Source: Candidatus Methylomirabilota bacterium (GTDB taxonomy: Bacteria > Methylomirabilota > Methylomirabilia > Rokubacteriales > CSP1-6). Taken from it: DNA of 10,252 nt. This document shows, in pieces, positions 2-10,252 of this stretch. The notes below the pieces were generated by a model. The model was given only the letters and a program-made list of their open reading frames with translations. It did not search any database and had not been told where the DNA came from. The position numbers and the translations under genes are program-made. Position 1 is the first letter of the stretch. Each line of letters opens with the position of its first letter. The stretch spans positions 1 to 10,252 of the forward strand of contig JBKPAK010000018.1 in NCBI GenBank assembly GCA_046726415.1. The letters run 5' to 3'.

Positions 2-779
2 GCGCTCGTCGGCGCCGCCGACGTCGCCGACGTCCTCGATCGGCGCGACCGAGTGACGCCGTGGCGGGAACGTGCGCGCCGGCTCCGCGAGAGGTTCGAG
101 CGCGACTTCTGGATGGAGAGCGAGGGCTATTACGCGCTCGCGCTGGACGGGGAGGGCCAGCCCTGCCGGGTGATCTCGTCCAATCCCGGCCACTGCCTCT
201 GGGCGGGGATCGTCAGCGACGCGCGCGCCGATCGCGTCGGCAAGCGCCTGCTGGCGGAGGACCTGTTCTCCGGCTGGGGCCTCCCGCACGCTGTCGACGC
301 GCGAGCGACGCTACAACCCCATGAGTTATCACGACGGTTCCGTCTGGCCGCACGACACCGCGATCGCCGCGCTCGGCCTTCGTCGCTATGCGACCGGGCC
401 GTTCGTGGCGCTGTGCACGGGCCTGGTCGAGGCCGCGCTCCACTGCGACGGCCTGCGCGTGCCCGAGCTGTTCTGCGGCTTCCCGCGTCTGCCGGGCTTC
501 GGACCCACACGGTATCCGGTGGCGTGCTCGCCGCAAGCTTGGGCGACCGGCGTCGTGTTCCATCTCCTCCAGGGAATGCTCGGCCTCTGTCCCGACGCTC
601 GCGACAACCGGCTCAACCTCGTGGATCCCGTGCTGCCGCCGTGGCTCTCGTGGATCGAGCTCCACGGCCTGCGGGTGGGCGACTCCAGCATCGATCTGCT
701 CGTCTCACGCGGGCGGCACGGCGCCGCCGTCGAGGTGCTGGACCGCCGCGGCGCCGCCGAGGTCATCGTCCGGCGCTGA
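2..779 (+). CDS. Amylo-alpha-1,6-glucosidase / glycogen debranching enzyme family, C-terminal part (5' end outside window; +1 frameshift at ~283-285)
   Basis: Frame 2 reads LRERFERDFWMESEGYYALALDGEGQPCRVISSNPGHCLWAGIV...LFSGWGL. Removing one C from CTCCCGCACG joins it to RTLSTRERRYNPMSYHDGSVWPHD...PELFCGF...YPVACSPQAWA, which are hallmark GDE C-terminal motifs. Stop TGA at 777-779. Confidence 0.9.
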
Positions 780-1301: not shown

Positions 1302-2470
1302 CTAGGCTGCGAGAGAGCGCTTCACCAAACGCTCGTAGAGCGCCTCGAAGGCGCCGAGCGTGCGTTCGAGGCTGTGTCCCTCAGCGATCATGCGGCTGGC
1401 CTGACCCGTGCCCGCCGCCCGCGAGGGATCCGCGAGCACCCGTTCGATCCGGTCGGCGAGCGCCCTGGCTTCCCCGGGGGGAAAGAGGAACCCATTCCGG
1501 CCGTCTTCGATGAGCTCGGGGAGTGCGACCGCGTCGGCGGCTACCACCGGGAGACCGGACGCCATCGCCTCGAGCGTCGCGATGCTCTGAAGCTCGTTCG
1601 GGCTCGGCATGACGAAGAGCATTGCCGTCTGCAACAGGCCCGGGAGCTGAGCGTCCCCGACGAATCCGGGGAACTGCACACACTCGGACACGCCCAGACG
1701 CGTGGCGAGGCGCCGAAGGTGGCGTTCGTCAGTCCCGCGGCCCGCCAGGACCACCTCCACGCGGCGCGTTCGGACCACGTGAGGCATGGCTCGGATCAAC
1801 ACCTCGACTTCCTTGTCGGGGTCGAGGCGACCGACGTAGACCATGCGGGCGGCCCGGCCCCCACCGTCGAAGTGGTCGCGGGCGGGGTGAAATCGCATCA
1901 CGTCGACACCGTTCGAGATGACGTGAATCGGTCCCCCCAGACCTTGAGCCCGCGCGAGGGCGGCCGCCGCCTGGCTGGGCGCCGTGACCGCGTCGAGCGC
2001 GAGATACACGCTGACGAACTGCCGCCACAGCGCTGCACTCAATCCTCGGCGGAGGGCTCGAGTCTGAGCAGGACGCCAGGGGCATGAGGGAGCATATTCG
2101 CCGGCATGAAATGATTCGTCCCCACGGCGGGGAGCTGGCGCCGCCGGGCCGCTTGCGCCAGGGCGCGGCCGAGGACGAAGTGGTTCTGGATGTGCACGAG
2201 GTCCGGATGGAAGTCGGTCAGCAGGCCGTCGGCGTCCCCCCGGGTGAGCAAGGCGCACCGCTGCTGGGGATACGGCGTAGGGATCGACCGGACCCGATAG
2301 ATCGTCAGGCCCCGGCTGGGCTCCTCCACGAAGCGATGCCCGTTCGGTGACGGAGCGGCTACGACCACGTCGTGTCCACGGTGTGCCAGTCCAGTGGCCA
2401 AGCGCTCCGCGAACACGGTGGGGCCGTTGACAAGAGGCGTGTAGGTCTCGGTCGCAATCATGATGCGCAC
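1302..2470 (-). CDS. Glycosyltransferase family 4 (GT-B fold; resembles lipid/diacylglycerol glycosyltransferases), frameshifted at ~2055
   Basis: N-half MRIMIATETYTPLVNGPTVFAERLATGLAHRGHDVVVAAP...FHPDLVHIQNHF...TNHFMP. C-half VISNGVD...YVGRLDPDKEVEVLIRA...FVMPSPNELQSIATLEAMASGLPVV contains the EX7E motif. One missing base in the GGG run near 2054-2056 joins the halves into about 389 aa. Confidence 0.9.
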
Positions 2471-4134: not shown

Positions 4135-5151
4135 ACCGACGCGCGTTCCTGTGCTGGTCCCTCTTCGCCGCACTCGCCGTCCCGCTCGCCGCCGAGGCGC
4201 AGCCAGCGGGGAAGGTGTATCGGGCCGGATGGGCTCGACGCCAATCCGACCGCGTGGGCCGGGTGGCGGATGGCGTTCCTGGACGGGCTGAAGAATCTCG
4301 GCTGGACGCTCGGCCGGGACTTCGTCTTCGAGTGGCGGCAGCCGGATTCGCACGAACCGACCTATGAGCGGCTGCCCCGGCTCCCGGGAGAGCTTGTCGG
4401 CGCCCAGATGGACGTGATCGTGGCGTGGGGGGGACCGGCGACCGAGACGGCCCGGGTAGCAACCAAGACGATTCCCGTCGTCTTCGTCAACGTCGACTCA
4501 CCGAGCCACTCGACGCCGGCTGCGAACGTCACCGGCATCTTCAACAAAGCCTCGGAGCTTGTCGGCGGAGCACCTCCGGTTGCTAATGGAATTGGTGCCA
4601 GGAGTCTCTCGGGTGGACGTACTTCGCGATCCCGGCAAGGTCGGCGCGGCGGCTCTGTTCGCGCGCACGCACGAGGCGGCTCGGGCGCTCGGCCTCCAGG
4701 TCCAAGCGCGGAACGTGATGCAAACCTCGACCCGGCCTTCGCTGTAGTGCAGGGGGATGGCGCCCAGGCGATGCTCGTGCGGAGTGCCGCGTGGATGATT
4801 CCACACCGGGGGCGCATCGCCCTGATCGCCCGAGAGCATGGGCTGCCTCTGGTCTCCGATTGGTACTACCTCACGCAGGCGGGAGGTCTGCTGTCCTACC
4901 GGTGGGACGACAATCAGTTGCTAGCGCGGGCCGCGGGGCTGGTCGACAGGATCTTCAAGGGCGCCAGGCCGGCCGACCTCCCCGTCGAGCAGCCGACGAA
5001 GTTCAAGCTGGCCCTCAACCTCAAGACCGCGAAGGCCCTCGGCATGACGATTCCGCCGTCGCTGTTGGTGCGGGCGGATCACGTGATCGAGTCGCGAGGG
5101 TGTGCACCGTTGACAGGTGTTCGATCAGGCCAAGAGGAGATCGGGGTATGA
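4131..5151 (+). CDS. ABC transporter substrate-binding protein (ABC_sub_bind family) with Tat-like signal peptide; three frameshifts (~4232, ~4560, ~4715)
   Basis: Reads MNRRAFLCWSLFAALAVPLAAEAQPAGKVYRAGW / AFLDGLKNLGW...DVIVAWG...ATKTIPVVFV...ANVTG / LRLLMELVPGVSRV / GGLLSY...VDRIFKGARPADLPVEQPTKFKLALNLKTAKALGMTIPPSLLVRADHVIE. The family normally ends at 'VIE' (~5090); here the frame reads on to 5151. No permease or ATPase genes are nearby. Confidence 0.88.
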
Positions 5152-6593: not shown

Positions 6594-7295
6594 ATTGCCG
6601 CAGTAACAGGCGCCTGGCTGAATAAAGGAGGAAGCTTCAGCGACGCCATGCGCCATGAGTTCGGCCTTATCCTGGCCGCGACCCTGACGCTTCTGGGATT
6701 GCTGATCGGGTTCAGCTTCTCGATGGCGGCCAGCCGCTATGACCAGCGCAAGAACCTCGAGGAGGCGGAAGCCAACGCCATCGGGACCGAGTACCTGCGG
6801 GCGGGCCTGCTGGGACAATCCGAGGCCGCCAAGACGCGCGAATTGCTGAAGAGGTATGTCGAGCTGCGCGCGCGCTTCTACACGGCGAACGAGAGCGATG
6901 TTCGCGAGGTCGATCGGCAAACTGCGCTGCTGCAGAAGGAGTTGTGGTCCGCCGTGCTGACGCCGGCCATCCAGCAGCCCGGTGCGCTCACGGCGCTCGC
7001 CGTTTCCGGCATGAACGACGTCATCAATGCGCAAGGCCAGATTCAGGCCGCATGGTGGAATCGCATTCCGGCGGCCGCCTGGGTCTTCATGGCCCTCATA
7101 GCCGTCTGCTCCAACCTGCTGGTCGGGTACGGCTTGCGAAGCTTCAAGCCACGCAGTCCGTTGCTCATAGTCCTGCCGCTGCTTGTCGCCCTTGCCTTCC
7201 TTTTGATCGACGATATCGACACGCCTCGGCATGGCCTGATCAAGGTCGTGCCGAGAAACCTCATCAGCCTGGCCGACTCCCTGAAAACTCCGTAG
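6594..7295 (+). CDS. DUF4239 / bestrophin-like membrane protein, probably lacking its first transmembrane segment (first ATG at 6648)
   Basis: Reads FGLILAATLTLLGLLIGFSFSMAASRYDQRKNLEEAEANAIGTEYLRAGLL...GMNDVIN...WNRIP...LIDDIDTPRHGLIKV. The frame is open back to 6594 (IAAVTGAWL), where it meets the GTPase fragment. Confidence 0.8.
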   Translation: MAAVTGAWLNKGGSFSDAMRHEFGLILAATLTLLGLLIGFSFSMAASRYDQRKNLEEAEANAIGTEYLRAGLLGQSEAAKTRELLKRYVELRARFYTANESDVREVDRQTALLQKELWSAVLTPAIQQPGALTALAVSGMNDVINAQGQIQAAWWNRIPAAAWVFMALIAVCSNLLVGYGLRSFKPRSPLLIVLPLLVALAFLLIDDIDTPRHGLIKVVPRNLISLADSLKTP

Positions 7296-7440: not shown

Positions 7441-7667
7441 CCTCGCCACTGGGCGTGGGCGGATCTGATGCGGCGCGCGTTCGACATCGACGTGATGGCA
7501 TGCCCGCGCTTCGGTGGACACCTGCGGTTGATTGCCACGGTCGAAGACCCCGACGCAATTCGCGCGATTCTCGTGGCTCTCGTCGACTCTCGAGAGCTGG
7601 CGGGTCGGGCGCCGCCGTTCGCACCAGCGCGCTGAACACCCGCCACGTTGCGGCGGTCGGCGTCTGA
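7441..7667 (+). pseudogene. IS91/ISCR-family transposase C-terminal fragment (not in the ORF track)
   Basis: Frame 1 reads PRHWAWADLMRRAFDIDVMACPRFGGHLRLIATVEDPDAIRAILVAL...GRAPP, matching the 'WA.L..R.F.ID...CP.CGG.LR.IA..EDP..I..IL....RAPP' tail. The second Cys is mutated to Phe. Stop at 7633-7635, or 7665-7667 if a frameshift is allowed. Confidence 0.85.
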
Positions 7668-7787
7668 GCACACCCGGACGTCGCGTTCGCTGGGCCCTGC
7701 TCCTCGTTCTTGGGGGGTCTATCCCCTGGTCCGCCGCTCGGTTGGCCGCAGAAAACTCCTTGTCAGGCTCGTTGTGCCCGCTGTGTC

Positions 7788-7890
7788 GGGGCGGACCGCG
7801 AGAACCGGTCGCTGCCGGGATTCGGATCCGCGCGGGAGGGGGCTGAGAACGGACGTTCCGTCAACCGGGCCTTTGTAGCTCCTATGCTCT
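7788..7890 (+). repeat. Direct repeat copy 1 (oriIS-like terminus)
   Basis: 7843-7890 matches 10108-10155 at 42/48 positions, including the perfect 26-mer CTGAGAACGGACGTTCCGTCAACCGG. Weaker similarity extends left to GGGGCGG at 7788/10047. Confidence 0.9.
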
Positions 7891-9222
7891 CATCGTTCGA
7901 CCTTCGCCGCGCAGACGACAAGCCCCGCGACCGGCGCGCCCGACTCCGTGCGGAGTTCTGGGTGAATGATCCGGGCGCGCAATCCTGCCGCGGCGAGCAG
8001 GCGCTCGACGTACTCGCGGCCATGGCTGTAGCGGCCGTGCAGCTCGAGGCGATAGCCGCCCTCCGGCTCCGCGCTTGTCGCACGTTCCAGCGTGAACACG
8101 AAGAGCCCGTTCGGGCGAAGCGCCGCCGCGGCCGCGGCCACGACATCGTCCAGCGCGCCGAAATACACGAGCGTGTCGGCCGACACGATCAGGTCGAAGG
8201 CGCCGGGGTGCTCGCGCAGGTAAGCGGTCAGCTCGGCCTTCGTCAGCTCGTCGTAGACGTGCTTCTCTCTTGCCTGCGCGAGCATGCCGTCGGAGAGATC
8301 GACGCCGATCACGCGTCGCGCGTACGGGGCGAGGAGCGGGCCACAGAGTCCCGTCCCGCATCCGGCGTCGAGGACGTCCAGCCTCTTCGACTCCTCGAGC
8401 CCTGAGTCCTCGAGCATCGTCGCCACCAGCGCCGGCGCGCGGTACGACAGCTTCTGAAGCTTGGATTCGAAGCTGGCGGCAAAGCTGTCGAACGTCCGCT
8501 CGACGAATCCGTCCGACGCGCGCGCCGGCACGCTGCGGCCGGTGCACGCCGCGAGCATGTGCAACGCGATCGGATCGTCCGGCTCCTCGCTAAGCCAGTC
8601 CTCGAAGATCCGCGCCGCCTCAGCGACGTCGCCAAGGGCGCAGTGCGCGAGCGCGAGCAGGCGCCGCGCTTCCGCATGCTTCGGCCTCAGCGTGATCGCC
8701 CTTGCAGTAGCACGCCGCCGCTTCTTCAGTCCTGTTCAAGCCGTTCAACAGGATGCCGAGGTTCGTGTACGCGTCGGTGTGATGGGGATCCAGCTCGATG
8801 GCTGTGCGATACGCGGCCTCGGCCTCCGACGGCTTCCCGGTCGCGCGCAGCAGCACGCCGAGATTGCTGTAGGCGTTCGCGTGGCGGGGATCGATCACGA
8901 TCGCTCGACGATAGGCGTCGATCGCTTCGTCGAGCCGGCCCGAGGACTGCAAGACGATGGCGAGGTTGTTGTAGCAGTCGGCGCGGTCGGGCACGAGCGC
9001 GAGGCTGCGCTCGATCAGCGCGACGGCCTCATCGCTGCGCCCCTGCTGATGCGCGAGCACGCCCGCGTAGTGCAGCGCCTCGGGATGATCCGGCTCCGCC
9101 TCGAGCACGCGGCGGTGCACTTCCGCGGCCTCAGCGAACTGGCCGTTCTTCTGCAGCAGGATCGCGAACGCGACCGCCTCGTCGAGCGTCAGCTCGCGAG
9201 GCGGCGTCTCCGTCTGCTCCAT
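7890..9222 (-). CDS. TPR-repeat + class I SAM-dependent methyltransferase fusion protein (COG4976-like), frameshifted at ~8699-8701
   Basis: TPR repeats (ALHYAGVLAHQQGRSDEAVALIERSLAL, YNNLAIVL, AYSNLGVLL, AYTNLGILL). Removing one G from AAGGGCGATC joins them to AITLRPKHAEARRLL...FDSFAASFESKL..LSYRAP...VLDAGCGTGLCG...GVDLSDGML...FDLIVSADTLVYFG...RYSH. About 443 aa when repaired. Confidence 0.9.
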
Positions 9223-9231
9223 GGCCGTGCC

Positions 9232-9702
9232 CTAGAACGTCTTGTTGGCCTTCAGGTCGTACTTGAAGTGGATGCCGGCGTCGAGCGATCCGTCGGCCTT
9301 CTGCGGCTTGTACTGAAAGTCGATCTTGGCAAAGGCCAGCGTCACCATCTCCGACCCGGTGTCCGGCTGGGTGGCGGAGCCGCTGTGCGTGACGCCGGTG
9401 ATGATCACGTCGTTCAGCTTGACGATCAGATATTCCTGCTGGCCCTTGCCCGCCTTCCGGTGCGTGATGGTCGCGTCGGGCAGGTGCTTCCCCGTCGCGC
9501 ACGCGAGCAGGAGCTGCGGCGTCGCCTTGTCGATGTGGTGAACGATCGAGAGATCCTGGAAGTTCGGCTTGCCGCCGCCTCCAGCCGCGGGGGCCGCGCT
9601 GGTGACGCCCCACGAGAACGAGAGCACTTCGATCTCGTCCTTGTGCTTGGCGTCGGTCGATTCCCCTTTGATGTCCCCGAGCTTTGCGAAGATGTCCGGC
9701 AT
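9232..9702 (-). CDS. hcp: Type VI secretion system tube protein Hcp (TssD), 156 aa, intact
   Basis: MPDIFAKLGDIKGESTDAKHKDEIEVLSFSWGV...FQDLSIVHHIDKATPQLLLACATGKHL..ATITHRKAG...EYLIVKLNDVIITGV...EMVTLAFAKIDFQYKPQKADGSL...YDLKANK. A G-run precedes the ATG as a possible Shine-Dalgarno. The stop lies 9 nt before the TPR-methyltransferase start. Confidence 0.96.
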   Translation of the reverse strand: MPDIFAKLGDIKGESTDAKHKDEIEVLSFSWGVTSAAPAAGGGGKPNFQDLSIVHHIDKATPQLLLACATGKHLPDATITHRKAGKGQQEYLIVKLNDVIITGVTHSGSATQPDTGSEMVTLAFAKIDFQYKPQKADGSLDAGIHFKYDLKANKTF

Positions 9703-9742
9703 CTGACGCCCCCCCAACTGACGGGTCAGGGAAAGAGACATC

Positions 9743-9748
9743 ATTCTA
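9743..9748 (-). promoter_or_regulatory. Putative -10 element for hcp
   Basis: TAGAAT on the minus strand 40 nt upstream of the hcp ATG, in a locally AT-richer spacer. No recognisable -35. Confidence 0.4.
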
Positions 9749-9760
9749 AGCCCGACGAGG

Positions 9761-10043
9761 CTATTCGGGGCGGATGGAGAGACTTTCCTGGCGGGCCAGC
9801 TGGAGGCGCGGGCCCTCATGTCATCGCCGCGAATTTCCTGCAGCGCACACGCAACGAGCGTGTGGACCATCTTCTTGCGCCACACGAGCTCGAAGTCGGT
9901 GTTGTCCATCGGCTTGGCGACCTCGCTCGCCGCGGCCGCGACCGCCGCAATAACTCGTCCGTCAGGCTTTCGCCCTCCAGCAGCGCTACCGCGCGATCGG
10001 CTTCCATCGGCTTCGACGCGACCGTGCCGAGAACGATCTGTAC
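9761..10043 (-). pseudogene. C-terminal fragment of a molybdenum-hydroxylase FAD-binding subunit (4-hydroxybenzoyl-CoA reductase beta / CoxM-like)
   Basis: Reads QIVLGTVASKPMEADRAVALLEGESLTDE/IAAVAAAASEVAKPMDNTDFELVWRKKMVHTLVACALQEIRGDDMRA/RLQLARQESLSIRPE*, with frameshifts at ~9952 and ~9810. The 5' side is cut off at the second oriIS-like repeat. Confidence 0.75.
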
Positions 10044-10046
10044 CGG

Positions 10047-10155
10047 GGGGCGGGAGCGCAAGGACCAGCCGCTGGGTTGGTCCGGTGGCGCGAGAGGGCG
10101 GGAGTGTCTGAGAACGGACGTTCCGTCAACCGGCCCTTTGTCGTGTCTACGCTCT
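10047..10155 (+). repeat. Direct repeat copy 2 (solo oriIS-like terminus with no adjacent transposase)
   Basis: CTGAGAACGGACGTTCCGTCAACCGGCCCTTTGTCGTGTCTACGCTCT, in the same orientation as copy 1. Confidence 0.9.
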
Positions 10156-10164
10156 TGACGGCTT

Positions 10165-10252
10165 TGGAGAATCCCTTCGCCGAGCGCGTCATCGGTTCGA
10201 TCGCCGCGAATGCCTTGATCTCGTCATCGTGCTCAACGAACGCCACCTGCGT
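10165..10252 (+). pseudogene. Integrase core domain (rve, DDE) transposase fragment, running off the window edge
   Basis: Reads W/(Q)NPFAERVIGSI/(R)RECLDLVIVLNERHLR with two single-base deletions. This is the typical 'PWQN..AER.IGSIRRECLDH.IV..E.HLR' segment, with no upstream part. Confidence 0.85.

Follow-up and report, generated by a model that had tools for sequence, protein, structure and literature searches.

Association of hcp with a TPR-methyltransferase gene: a recurrent two-gene module outside type VI secretion clusters

Stand-alone hcp genes are usually scored as evidence of a type VI secretion system (T6SS) or as its leftovers. The 10,252-nucleotide (nt) contig JBKPAK010000018.1 of a Candidatus Methylomirabilota bacterium (GCA_046726415.1; GC content ~68%), which was analyzed in its entirety and is hereinafter called the window, raises the question whether such a gene can be part of a different, smaller unit. 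In this contig, hcp, the gene for the T6SS tube protein, is followed by a gene that combines tetratricopeptide repeats (TPR) with an S-adenosylmethionine (SAM)-dependent methyltransferase (MTase) domain, and a preliminary description, made from the letters alone, proposed that the two genes form a self-contained unit. Comparison with related loci shows that the pair is a real, recurrent, selected and self-contained module, that the TPR-MTase is a conserved accessory resident of T6SS clusters similar to the H1-T6SS of Pseudomonas aeruginosa, and that, outside such clusters, its gene is almost always located directly beside hcp. Numerous soil bacteria carry the pair outside any T6SS cluster, which suggests that Hcp and the TPR-MTase are partners in a way not described so far.

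The window hcp gene (tssD; 9232..9702, minus strand) is intact, encodes a protein of 156 amino acids (aa) followed by a stop codon, and belongs to the type of the primary tube subunit of H1-like clusters. The protein matches the Pfam family T6SS_HCP (PF05638) with E = 9.6e-37 and 126.6 bits (cutoff 23.5), and the NCBIfam model TIGR03344 (TssD) with 70.2 bits (cutoff 58.9); the closest solved structure is Hcp1 of P. aeruginosa (Protein Data Bank (PDB) entry 1Y12, E = 6e-41 over residues 3-150). Given that the cutoffs of curated families are passed and that the protein is a close relative of a structurally defined, ring-forming Hcp, it is on this evidence a tube protein of the Hcp/TssD family, with ring formation and export predicted. 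The open reading frame (ORF) and the Pfam and TIGR03344 matches bear out the preliminary identification of an intact hcp upstream of a TPR-SAM-methyltransferase gene, and the spacer between the hcp stop and the start of that gene (ATG at 9220-9222), as read from the sequence, is exactly the 9 nt that had been reported (9223..9231, minus strand). In related loci with an upstream hcp, the spacer is mostly 11-57 nt long. The window Hcp is 62-78% identical to the products of hcp in 50 related loci.

The TPR-MTase gene (7890..9222, minus strand) is read by Pfam in two frames. Frame A (8702..9222, minus strand) encodes the N-terminus and, as far as K174, at least six TPR repeats, which are recognized by TPR_1 (E = 6e-33) and by numerous further TPR models, and it turns to nonsense past residue 174; over residues 8-174, it is 84% identical to the intact 438-aa homolog P0004, ending with ...CYCK. 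Frame B (7890..8698, minus strand; stop at 7890-7892), identified by Pfam as the last TPR and a class I SAM-MTase domain, picks up at ITLRPKH, the next residues of P0004, with zero residues lost. In this frame, Methyltransf_25 (E = 5e-15, 56.3 bits, cutoff 27) and Methyltransf_11 (E = 2e-14, 54.2 bits, cutoff 21.2) are the matches reported in detail, and Methyltransf_12, Methyltransf_23 and Methyltransf_31 also score above their cutoffs. The SAM motif LDAGCGTG (D-x-G-C-G-T-G) is invariant in two alignments of 51 and 57 sequences (A2 and A4, respectively). Thus, the Pfam scores, the glycine-rich SAM motif and the Rossmann-type alpha/beta fold (see below) place the protein among the class I SAM-MTases. 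The frame break itself maps, by alignment to P0004, to a G-run at 8699..8701 (minus strand), within AAG-GGC-G, where one extra base causes a +1 shift; in the related loci, 51 homologs are encoded by single ORFs of 425-467 aa. A programmed frameshift at 8699-8701 was considered and rejected, given that the homologs are single ORFs and that no slippery motif is present.

A tblastn search of the window started with TssB, TssC, TssE, TssF, TssG, ClpV, VgrG and ImpE sequences from related cluster loci detects no match with E <= 0.01; these eight families are the T6SS probes used throughout, TssA, TssJ, TssK, TssL, TssM and PAAR being outside the probe set. The statement of the preliminary description that no other T6SS genes are present therefore holds within the window for these eight families, and hcp is not accompanied here by the core genes of a complete T6SS cluster. 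Because the module is flanked by about 8 kb of sequence on one side but only by 0.5 kb on the opposite side, this negative result has little bearing on the genome as a whole.

A check proposed in the preliminary description was to inspect the neighborhoods of close homologs. With the MTase part as the query, 80 loci were collected from other genomes, with up to 10 kb on each side, and mapped by tblastn with the window Hcp, TPR and MTase parts; the neighboring ORFs were clustered, and the recurrent clusters were named by Pfam and mapped back. These clusters are ClpV-like AAA+, TssF, VgrG, TssC, TssE, ImpE/TagJ (PF07024), TssG, DUF2169, TssB and DUF6484. The submitters' labels of the loci include Acidobacteriota (with Vicinamibacterales and Pyrinomonadaceae), Polyangiaceae, Gammaproteobacteria, Planctomycetes, Alphaproteobacteria (Bradyrhizobium erythrophlei GAS478, Pseudolabrys, Reyranella and Xanthobacteraceae), metagenome-assembled genomes (MAGs) named "beta proteobacterium", Verrucomicrobiota/Udaeobacter and Actinomycetota (Gaiellales and Thermoleophilia). 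In 53 of the 80 loci, hcp directly adjoins the TPR-MTase gene and the flanks contain no match to the eight T6SS families (the count is the same at E <= 0.01), with about 9 kb or more available on both sides in 33 of the 53. This is the arrangement of an auxiliary module, that is, hcp outside the main cluster together with a conserved partner gene. Typically, hcp is located upstream on the same strand (43 pair loci), and in the other 10 it is found downstream, in either orientation, with a 17-nt overlap of the convergent genes in three "beta" loci.

The second context of the TPR-MTase gene is the T6SS cluster itself. Matches to T6SS core genes are found in 15 of the 80 loci, none of which is scored with an abutting hcp, so that no locus in the sample joins the two arrangements. 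In 13 of these 15 loci, clpV directly flanks the TPR-MTase gene, and vgrG comes next wherever the flank reaches far enough. The order, seen whole or in part up to the contig end in 13 cluster loci, is tssB tssC hcp (hcp2) impE tssE tssF tssG clpV, then the TPR-MTase gene, then vgrG DUF6484 DUF2169; L071 has the same cluster neighbors with the TPR-MTase gene convergent to clpV, and in L068, clpV is 7 kb away. The clpV-flanked loci carry the labels Acidobacteriota, Gammaproteobacteria and Polyangiaceae, so that the gene has a fixed position in T6SS clusters of distant taxa, as is characteristic of T6SS accessory (Tag) genes. The statement, in the preliminary description, that such genes occur next to hcp in some proteobacterial T6SS clusters needs correction: in the clusters compared here, the gene is found after clpV and before vgrG, at a distance of about 8 kb from hcp.

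The remaining 12 loci show neither an abutting hcp nor core matches, and nine of them encode distant homologs (36-49% identical); in L004 and L006, truncation at the N-terminus leaves proteins of 303 and 384 aa, respectively, and L055, although scored as lacking hcp, is on inspection a pair with a frame break. L052, one of the 15 loci with core matches, also has a nearby hcp on inspection, so that the pair-bearing loci number 55 when L052 and L055 are counted. Among the 57 loci with at least 61% identity, the script finds 46 pairs (48 with L052 and L055) and two truncated genes, and clusters account for only seven, so that the close homologs are far from being confined to complete clusters. 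Two contigs of one MAG (L035 and L051, prefix CAWIGD01) each carry a pair, with near-identical Hcp and shared neighbors (clusters 70, 20 and 71); the region has either been duplicated or was assembled twice. Near the pair of another locus, L056 (12809-15709; 49% identical, with hcp convergent downstream), are genes of DUF6484, of DUF2169 and of a 379-aa family without a name; these are the families that follow vgrG in the cluster loci, and L056 itself contains no match to vgrG or the core genes at E <= 0.01.

In the pair loci, hcp has a median pairwise ratio of nonsynonymous to synonymous substitution rates (dN/dS; NG86, 0.05 < dS < 1.5) of 0.196 (408 comparisons), and the MTase gene has one of 0.18 (429 comparisons), with dS near saturation for many sequence pairs; in the cluster loci, the corresponding values, from few comparisons (only two for Hcp), are 0.08-0.21 and 0.19-0.35. 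By this measure, both genes are under purifying selection. A strict caller finds both ORFs intact in 36 of the 53 pair loci, the rest including contig-edge truncations and frame splits. Clustering of the neighbor ORFs in the 80 loci detects no third conserved gene next to the pairs, and tblastn detects no VgrG, so that the pairs show none of the immunity, adaptor, vgrG or PAAR genes expected of an effector module. Because the flanking genes are mostly unshared between pair loci, the conserved unit consists of exactly two genes, without a candidate immunity gene. Altogether, the 53 pairs, their rearranged orientations and their mostly unshared flanks are in line with the self-contained unit proposed originally.

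Some of the pairs nevertheless retain traces of a cluster. In L052, a 294-nt remnant of the 3' end of clpV (encoding residues 822-910, 63% identical) separates hcp from the TPR-MTase gene that follows it, and in L009, L010 and L018, two pieces (~170 nt) of the tssC 3' end are located directly upstream of hcp. As judged from their positions, these relics are scars of deletions in an H1-like cluster that spared hcp and the TPR-MTase gene. Since relics of tssC (three loci) and clpV (one locus) adjoin the pairs, at least some pairs arose by cluster erosion. Hence, of the two alternatives posed at the outset, a self-contained unit or a broken-off piece, the former describes the pair as it recurs today, and the latter applies historically to the four pairs flanked by relics. 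In a neighbor-joining (NJ) tree of the MTases, built from BLOSUM62 distances without support values, the cluster-context proteins are basal to or interleaved with the pair-context ones: L052 groups with the cluster locus L045, the "beta" pairs group with the cluster loci L013 and L039, and a large pair clade splits by taxon label. The NJ tree of Hcp shows the same groupings, and the paired Hcps, including that of the window, are placed with the products of the first hcp gene in the clusters (in the case of the window, those of L013, L039 and L045) and not with the second copy. We read these trees as several independent transitions from cluster to pair combined with long vertical descent; some lateral transfer is likely, given the 65-78% identity across phyla, although it is not shown.

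The pair appears to have its own promoter. The TAGAAT box mentioned in the preliminary description is indeed present at 9743-9748 (minus strand), 41 nt before the hcp ATG, and resembles a -10 element. The pattern TAnAAT occurs in 11 of 52 hcp-upstream regions versus a background of 0.011 per 100 nt, with all 11 boxes in Acidobacteriota-type loci or the window; alphaproteobacterial pairs share, by eye, a TTGAC(A/T)...TCTACT pattern, so that the promoter-like boxes upstream of the pairs are lineage-specific. A scan of positions 7600-10252 for sigma-70 and terminator consensus sequences yields 0 sites and no full -35/-10 combination, and because of this, the TAGAAT box is only a putative promoter of the pair.

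The association with T6SS does not extend to the entire TPR-MTase family. Of 8,000 candidates that were scored, more than 6,000 are related to the MTase part; the best 120 of these share 73-80% identity with it and are mostly single proteins of ~440-460 aa, with the rest ranging from 222 to 475 aa. The closest relatives of the window protein (79-80% identical) are metagenomic, and all but one of the named relatives bear the JGI product name "predicted TPR repeat methyltransferase", which we take to be COG4976. These proteins have the same architecture as the window protein, TPR followed by Methyltransf_11/25, although the name is a domain description only. A cultured carrier of the pair is B. 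erythrophlei GAS478 (L030); the passages of PMC10845061 that deal with T6SS and with erythrophlei say nothing about a T6SS in this species. Rhodospirillales URHD0017 (FODP01) and Rhizobiales AFS091992 (UCKM01) are further isolates that bear the pair. Homologs on plasmids (18 records) are all less than 60% identical, and two of these loci were inspected. In the Azospirillum ramasamyi plasmid NZ_CP029830.1 (L081, 198370-229095), a ~50%-identical homolog is found amid genes for flagellin, flbT, several large TPR proteins and flagellar hook/rod proteins, whereas in the Thiodictyon syntrophicum plasmid pTs485 (L082, 313347-344078), a 56%-identical homolog belongs to a PAAR - MTase - TPR-MTase string that adjoins a divergent vgrG; peptidoglycan-binding genes are located farther on. 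Because homologs from the wider family are found in flagellar and other settings, the T6SS link is, on the loci compared, a property of the subfamily. The recurrence beside genes for subunits of secreted polymers (Hcp and flagellin) is suggestive but unproven.

An AlphaFold2 model of the TPR-MTase from L028, based on the 51-sequence alignment, has a mean predicted local distance difference test (pLDDT) score of 92.8 and a predicted template modeling (pTM) score of 0.83, and consists of ~13 paired TPR helices (residues 13-227) that lead, through a linker helix, into a Rossmann-type MTase domain. The best PDB fold matches of the full-length model are the TPR solenoids of O-GlcNAc transferase (OGT) and SPINDLY, with template modeling (TM) scores of ~0.4-0.5 that pertain to the TPR part only. 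The MTase domain of the window protein itself is also modeled with a Rossmann-type fold (pLDDT 92.0), and a Foldseek search started with it identifies UbiG, RPA2492, MitM, NTMT1 and others with TM scores of 0.6-0.78. The modeled domain thus resembles generic class I enzymes, as does its sequence, and its substrate may be a small molecule, RNA or a protein N-terminus. A 1:1 complex prediction for Hcp and the TPR-MTase of L028, both entered as alignments, gave a score of 0.00 (mark 0.32; no controls run) and counts neither way.

A search for Hcp among longer proteins yields 47 matches, 10 of which combine Hcp with TPR (and MTase) Pfam sets, and all of these are singletons. In the three fusion candidates that were scanned, the Hcp profile is covered at positions 37-129 (P0143), 1-110 (P0136) and 1-126 (P0138) of 129. 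These proteins were rejected as natural fusions that could provide Rosetta-stone evidence and are treated as read-through or indel artifacts of the short spacer, being singletons, two of them with a partial Hcp. The 604-aa singleton P0156 consists of an Hcp domain (profile positions 1-111) and a different, MTS/PrmA-like methyltransferase domain, and could be either a second, independent association of Hcp with a methyltransferase or a read-through artifact. Four larger proteins (P0123-P0125 and P0127; 1,061-1,510 aa) carry an N-terminal Hcp domain, 41-43% identical to the window Hcp, followed by PKD/cadherin/RTX-like repeats; these are extended forms of Hcp that are unrelated to the pair.

The cluster context is best compared with the H1-T6SS of P. 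aeruginosa, which has the gene order tssB1 tssC1 hcp1 tagJ1 tssE1 tssF1 tssG1 clpV1 vgrG1. The cluster loci share the order tssB tssC hcp impE/tagJ tssE tssF tssG clpV ... vgrG, and Hcp1 (1Y12) is the nearest structural relative of the window Hcp; the difference is that these loci add the TPR-MTase gene between clpV and vgrG and, in some cases, a second hcp, and that the window holds, of the entire cluster, only hcp and the extra gene. Known orphan or auxiliary modules consist of hcp, often with vgrG or PAAR, followed by effector and immunity genes. The pair resembles them in that hcp is outside the main cluster, with a conserved partner close behind and an apparent promoter of its own, but it lacks vgrG (by tblastn) as well as PAAR, adaptor and immunity genes (by neighbor clustering), the partner gene encodes a TPR enzyme of ~49 kDa and has, in main clusters, a fixed place beside clpV, and four of the pairs, with their core-gene relics, derive from cluster erosion. 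TagJ/ImpE is, like the TPR-MTase, a helical-repeat accessory protein encoded in the same clusters, but it belongs to a separate family, has no enzymatic domain, and is lost from the orphan pairs in which the TPR-MTase is kept. In OGT and SPINDLY, the TPR solenoid brings protein substrates to a C-terminal transferase domain. The TPR-MTase has the same layout, with the TPR superhelix at the N-terminus and the catalytic transferase domain after it, except that this domain is a class I SAM-MTase and not a GT41 glycosyltransferase; because the fold match spans the TPR part only, the similarity is an analogy and not a homology of the enzymes. Accessory Tag proteins and orphan hcp modules are thus already known, whereas an MTase that is fixed in H1-like clusters and travels with hcp after the loss of the remaining cluster genes is unreported in the literature found: a full-text search, with most subscription journals outside its scope, retrieved no paper that links a TPR-methyltransferase to T6SS or Hcp, or gives its function.

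The explanation that best accounts for all these observations, and that we favor with moderate confidence, is a widespread module of hcp and a ~445-aa TPR-MTase gene, in which the product of the latter is a protein methyltransferase that is guided by its TPR, is linked to T6SS and cooperates with Hcp. The pair would be transcribed from its own promoter, and the TPR solenoid would, by analogy with OGT and SPINDLY, bring in the protein client on which the methyltransferase domain acts; the client or working partner would be a T6SS component, most likely Hcp, and the pair would have an auxiliary role, which it might play on its own or in the service of a T6SS located elsewhere. Our confidence decreases from the action of the protein in the T6SS/Hcp sphere, to its being a protein methyltransferase with TPR-mediated client recruitment, to Hcp as the client or partner. 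Several points weigh against this explanation. The methylation of Hcp, or of any protein, is something we infer, and the nearest MTase folds span enzymes acting on small molecules (UbiG, MitM and ToxA), RNA (METTL6) and protein (NTMT1). Distant members of the family (36-55% identical) occupy settings unrelated to T6SS, including the Azospirillum megaplasmid homologs in the flagellin/FlbT/TPR region, with no T6SS genes nearby, and Planctomycetes loci that contain neither hcp nor matches to the eight probe families. The locus sample derives from exact query peptide patterns, with one genome per species, and is neither exhaustive nor unbiased; the restricted T6SS probe set, the unsupported NJ trees and the near-saturated dS values are to be added on the same side.

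That the adjacency of hcp and the TPR-MTase gene is a chance neighborhood without functional meaning is extremely improbable. The general caveat that neighboring genes need not interact applies, but the pair recurs in 53 of the 80 loci, under labels of at least five phyla, with unshared flanks and in three relative orientations, and the pair and in-cluster contexts never overlap. A more serious contender is that the TPR-MTase is a secreted cargo (effector) and the adjacent Hcp its dedicated carrier or chaperone, the two forming an auxiliary module for a T6SS located elsewhere. An orphan hcp followed by cargo is a known layout, the pTs485 homolog, in its PAAR - MTase - TPR-MTase string next to the divergent vgrG, has a spike- or cargo-like setting, and in the clusters, the TPR-MTase gene directly precedes vgrG. 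However, a ~49-kDa protein is roughly twice the size thought to fit the lumen of the Hcp ring, no conserved third gene qualifies as an immunity candidate, and the cluster gene is upstream of vgrG, by clpV, whereas cargo and adaptors such as DUF2169 are downstream of vgrG; furthermore, in 10 loci, hcp and the MTase gene are not co-oriented or co-transcribed. We consider the cargo explanation unlikely.

Alternatively, the pair might work without any T6SS: after the loss of the cluster, Hcp rings and the methyltransferase would have been kept for a secretion-independent job, with Hcp as a substrate, scaffold or chaperone. The relics of tssC and clpV beside intact, selected pairs fit this scenario, in that the rest of the cluster was deleted and the two genes kept, and so does the promoter-like box of each lineage. 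Pairs are also found on large contigs labeled Actinomycetota/Thermoleophilia (L048, on a 1.08-Mb contig, L053, L043 and L079) and Verrucomicrobiota/Udaeobacter (L020, L022 and L023), and we know of no T6SS in actinobacterial lineages. Nonetheless, the absence of T6SS genes pertains to the locus flanks and not to whole genomes, the taxon labels are the submitters' own, and many of the labeled hosts (Bradyrhizobium, beta- and alphaproteobacteria, Acidobacteriota) come from groups in which T6SS is common; the constraint on the paired Hcp, similar to that on the in-cluster Hcp (only two cluster comparisons), fits a continued tube function. It is accordingly a doubtful proposition that Hcp and the TPR-MTase outlive the T6SS. 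The specific form of this idea, in which the two are retained under selection, also in the lineages labeled Actinomycetota and Verrucomicrobiota and the enzyme methylates Hcp, or uses its rings as a scaffold or chaperone, independently of secretion, likewise seems improbable to us. Were it true, the TPR-MTase would be the first enzymatic post-translational partner of Hcp, and this would be the first T6SS-independent role for a canonical Hcp.

Modification of Hcp, or of some other T6SS protein, by the enzyme, as in the favored explanation, would mean that an intensively studied machine is subject to a further, new level of post-translational control. Should the pair instead function independently of a T6SS, stand-alone hcp genes in genomes and metagenomes would have to be read differently. 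The relatives are numerous, and a cultured carrier, B. erythrophlei GAS478, makes the question accessible to direct tests.

For the window copy specifically, the frame break at 8699-8701 could be real, in which case the MTase gene would be a pseudogene and the module a dying relic on a contig in genuine decay. Further genes on the contig are broken, and the module has an insertion sequence (IS)-like fragment and a truncated flavoprotein gene as neighbors and is enclosed by a 48-nt repeat. On the other side, the sole lesion in the module is a single base, with no stop codons and no deletions, and both frames are 79-84% identical to intact homologs; breaks in unrelated genes at roughly one per 1-2 kb are more typical of an indel-prone assembly, and splits of the same kind occur in several related long-contig MAG loci. 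Decay in place is therefore a minor prospect. Because the break involves a single homopolymer base, without residue loss, and because other genes of the contig and the related MAG loci are split likewise, it is probably an assembly or sequencing indel and not a true pseudogene. This point, which also has to be held against the favored explanation, is a matter for the sequencing reads and concerns this copy only, error being the most likely outcome.

Three of the other broken genes are a GT4 glycosyltransferase (1305-2470, minus strand), which Pfam finds split over two ORFs with Glyco_transf_4 profile positions 1-108 in one and 104-168 in the other, an ABC_sub_bind solute-binding protein (4270-5148, plus strand), matched by Pfam in two separate stretches, and a glycoside hydrolase-like gene at the left end (2-776, plus strand), in which the frame change was seen by eye. 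Break points in addition to 8699-8701 lie at about 2100, 4500-4800 and 9960. Because all three, together with the 8699-8701 site, change frame internally, an indel-prone assembly is suggested; the single-base breaks are scattered over unrelated genes, and both parts of each gene closely resemble intact homologs, a pattern that suggests indel error and not pseudogenization. The remark of the preliminary description that hcp is indel-free in a decayed region is accurate as to the intact gene but uninformative, given that, at the break density stated above, a 471-nt gene would escape by chance in an estimated two-thirds of cases and that the decay looks like indel error.

The flavoprotein gene at the upstream edge of the module, and outside it, is a CoxM-like C-terminal remnant (9819..10061, minus strand) that matches CO_deh_flav_C at profile positions 32-66 of 102 with E = 0.0018, below the Pfam cutoff, and changes frame near 9960 in the six-frame translation. 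The feature previously described as the natural 3' end of a gene for a flavin adenine dinucleotide (FAD) subunit is thus a C-terminal flavoprotein fragment, as stated, but the match is weak, and the gene is 5'-truncated and frame-broken. A repeat search identifies two 48-nt direct repeats (family D3; strand not applicable), copy A at 7843..7890, which abuts the MTase stop, and copy B at 10108..10155, with 88% identity between the two and weaker similarity over ~100 nt; the repeats bracket a 2.3-kb segment comprising the MTase gene, hcp and the flavoprotein fragment. The repeat has no copies in the 80 related loci, no Rfam family is detected in the window, and the repeat folds no better than shuffled sequences; it was therefore dropped as a known element and stays unexplained. 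The right end of the contig (10152-10252, plus strand) can be read, across a frame change, as the C-terminal part of a putative rve-type integrase/transposase; a Pfam search with the two short frames of this region finds nothing. On the other side of the module, ~600 nt downstream and on the opposite strand, is a gene that is not kept beside other pairs; it is intact and encodes a 215-aa membrane protein with a Bestrophin-like domain (6648-7295, plus strand; PF14023, E = 1.3e-15).

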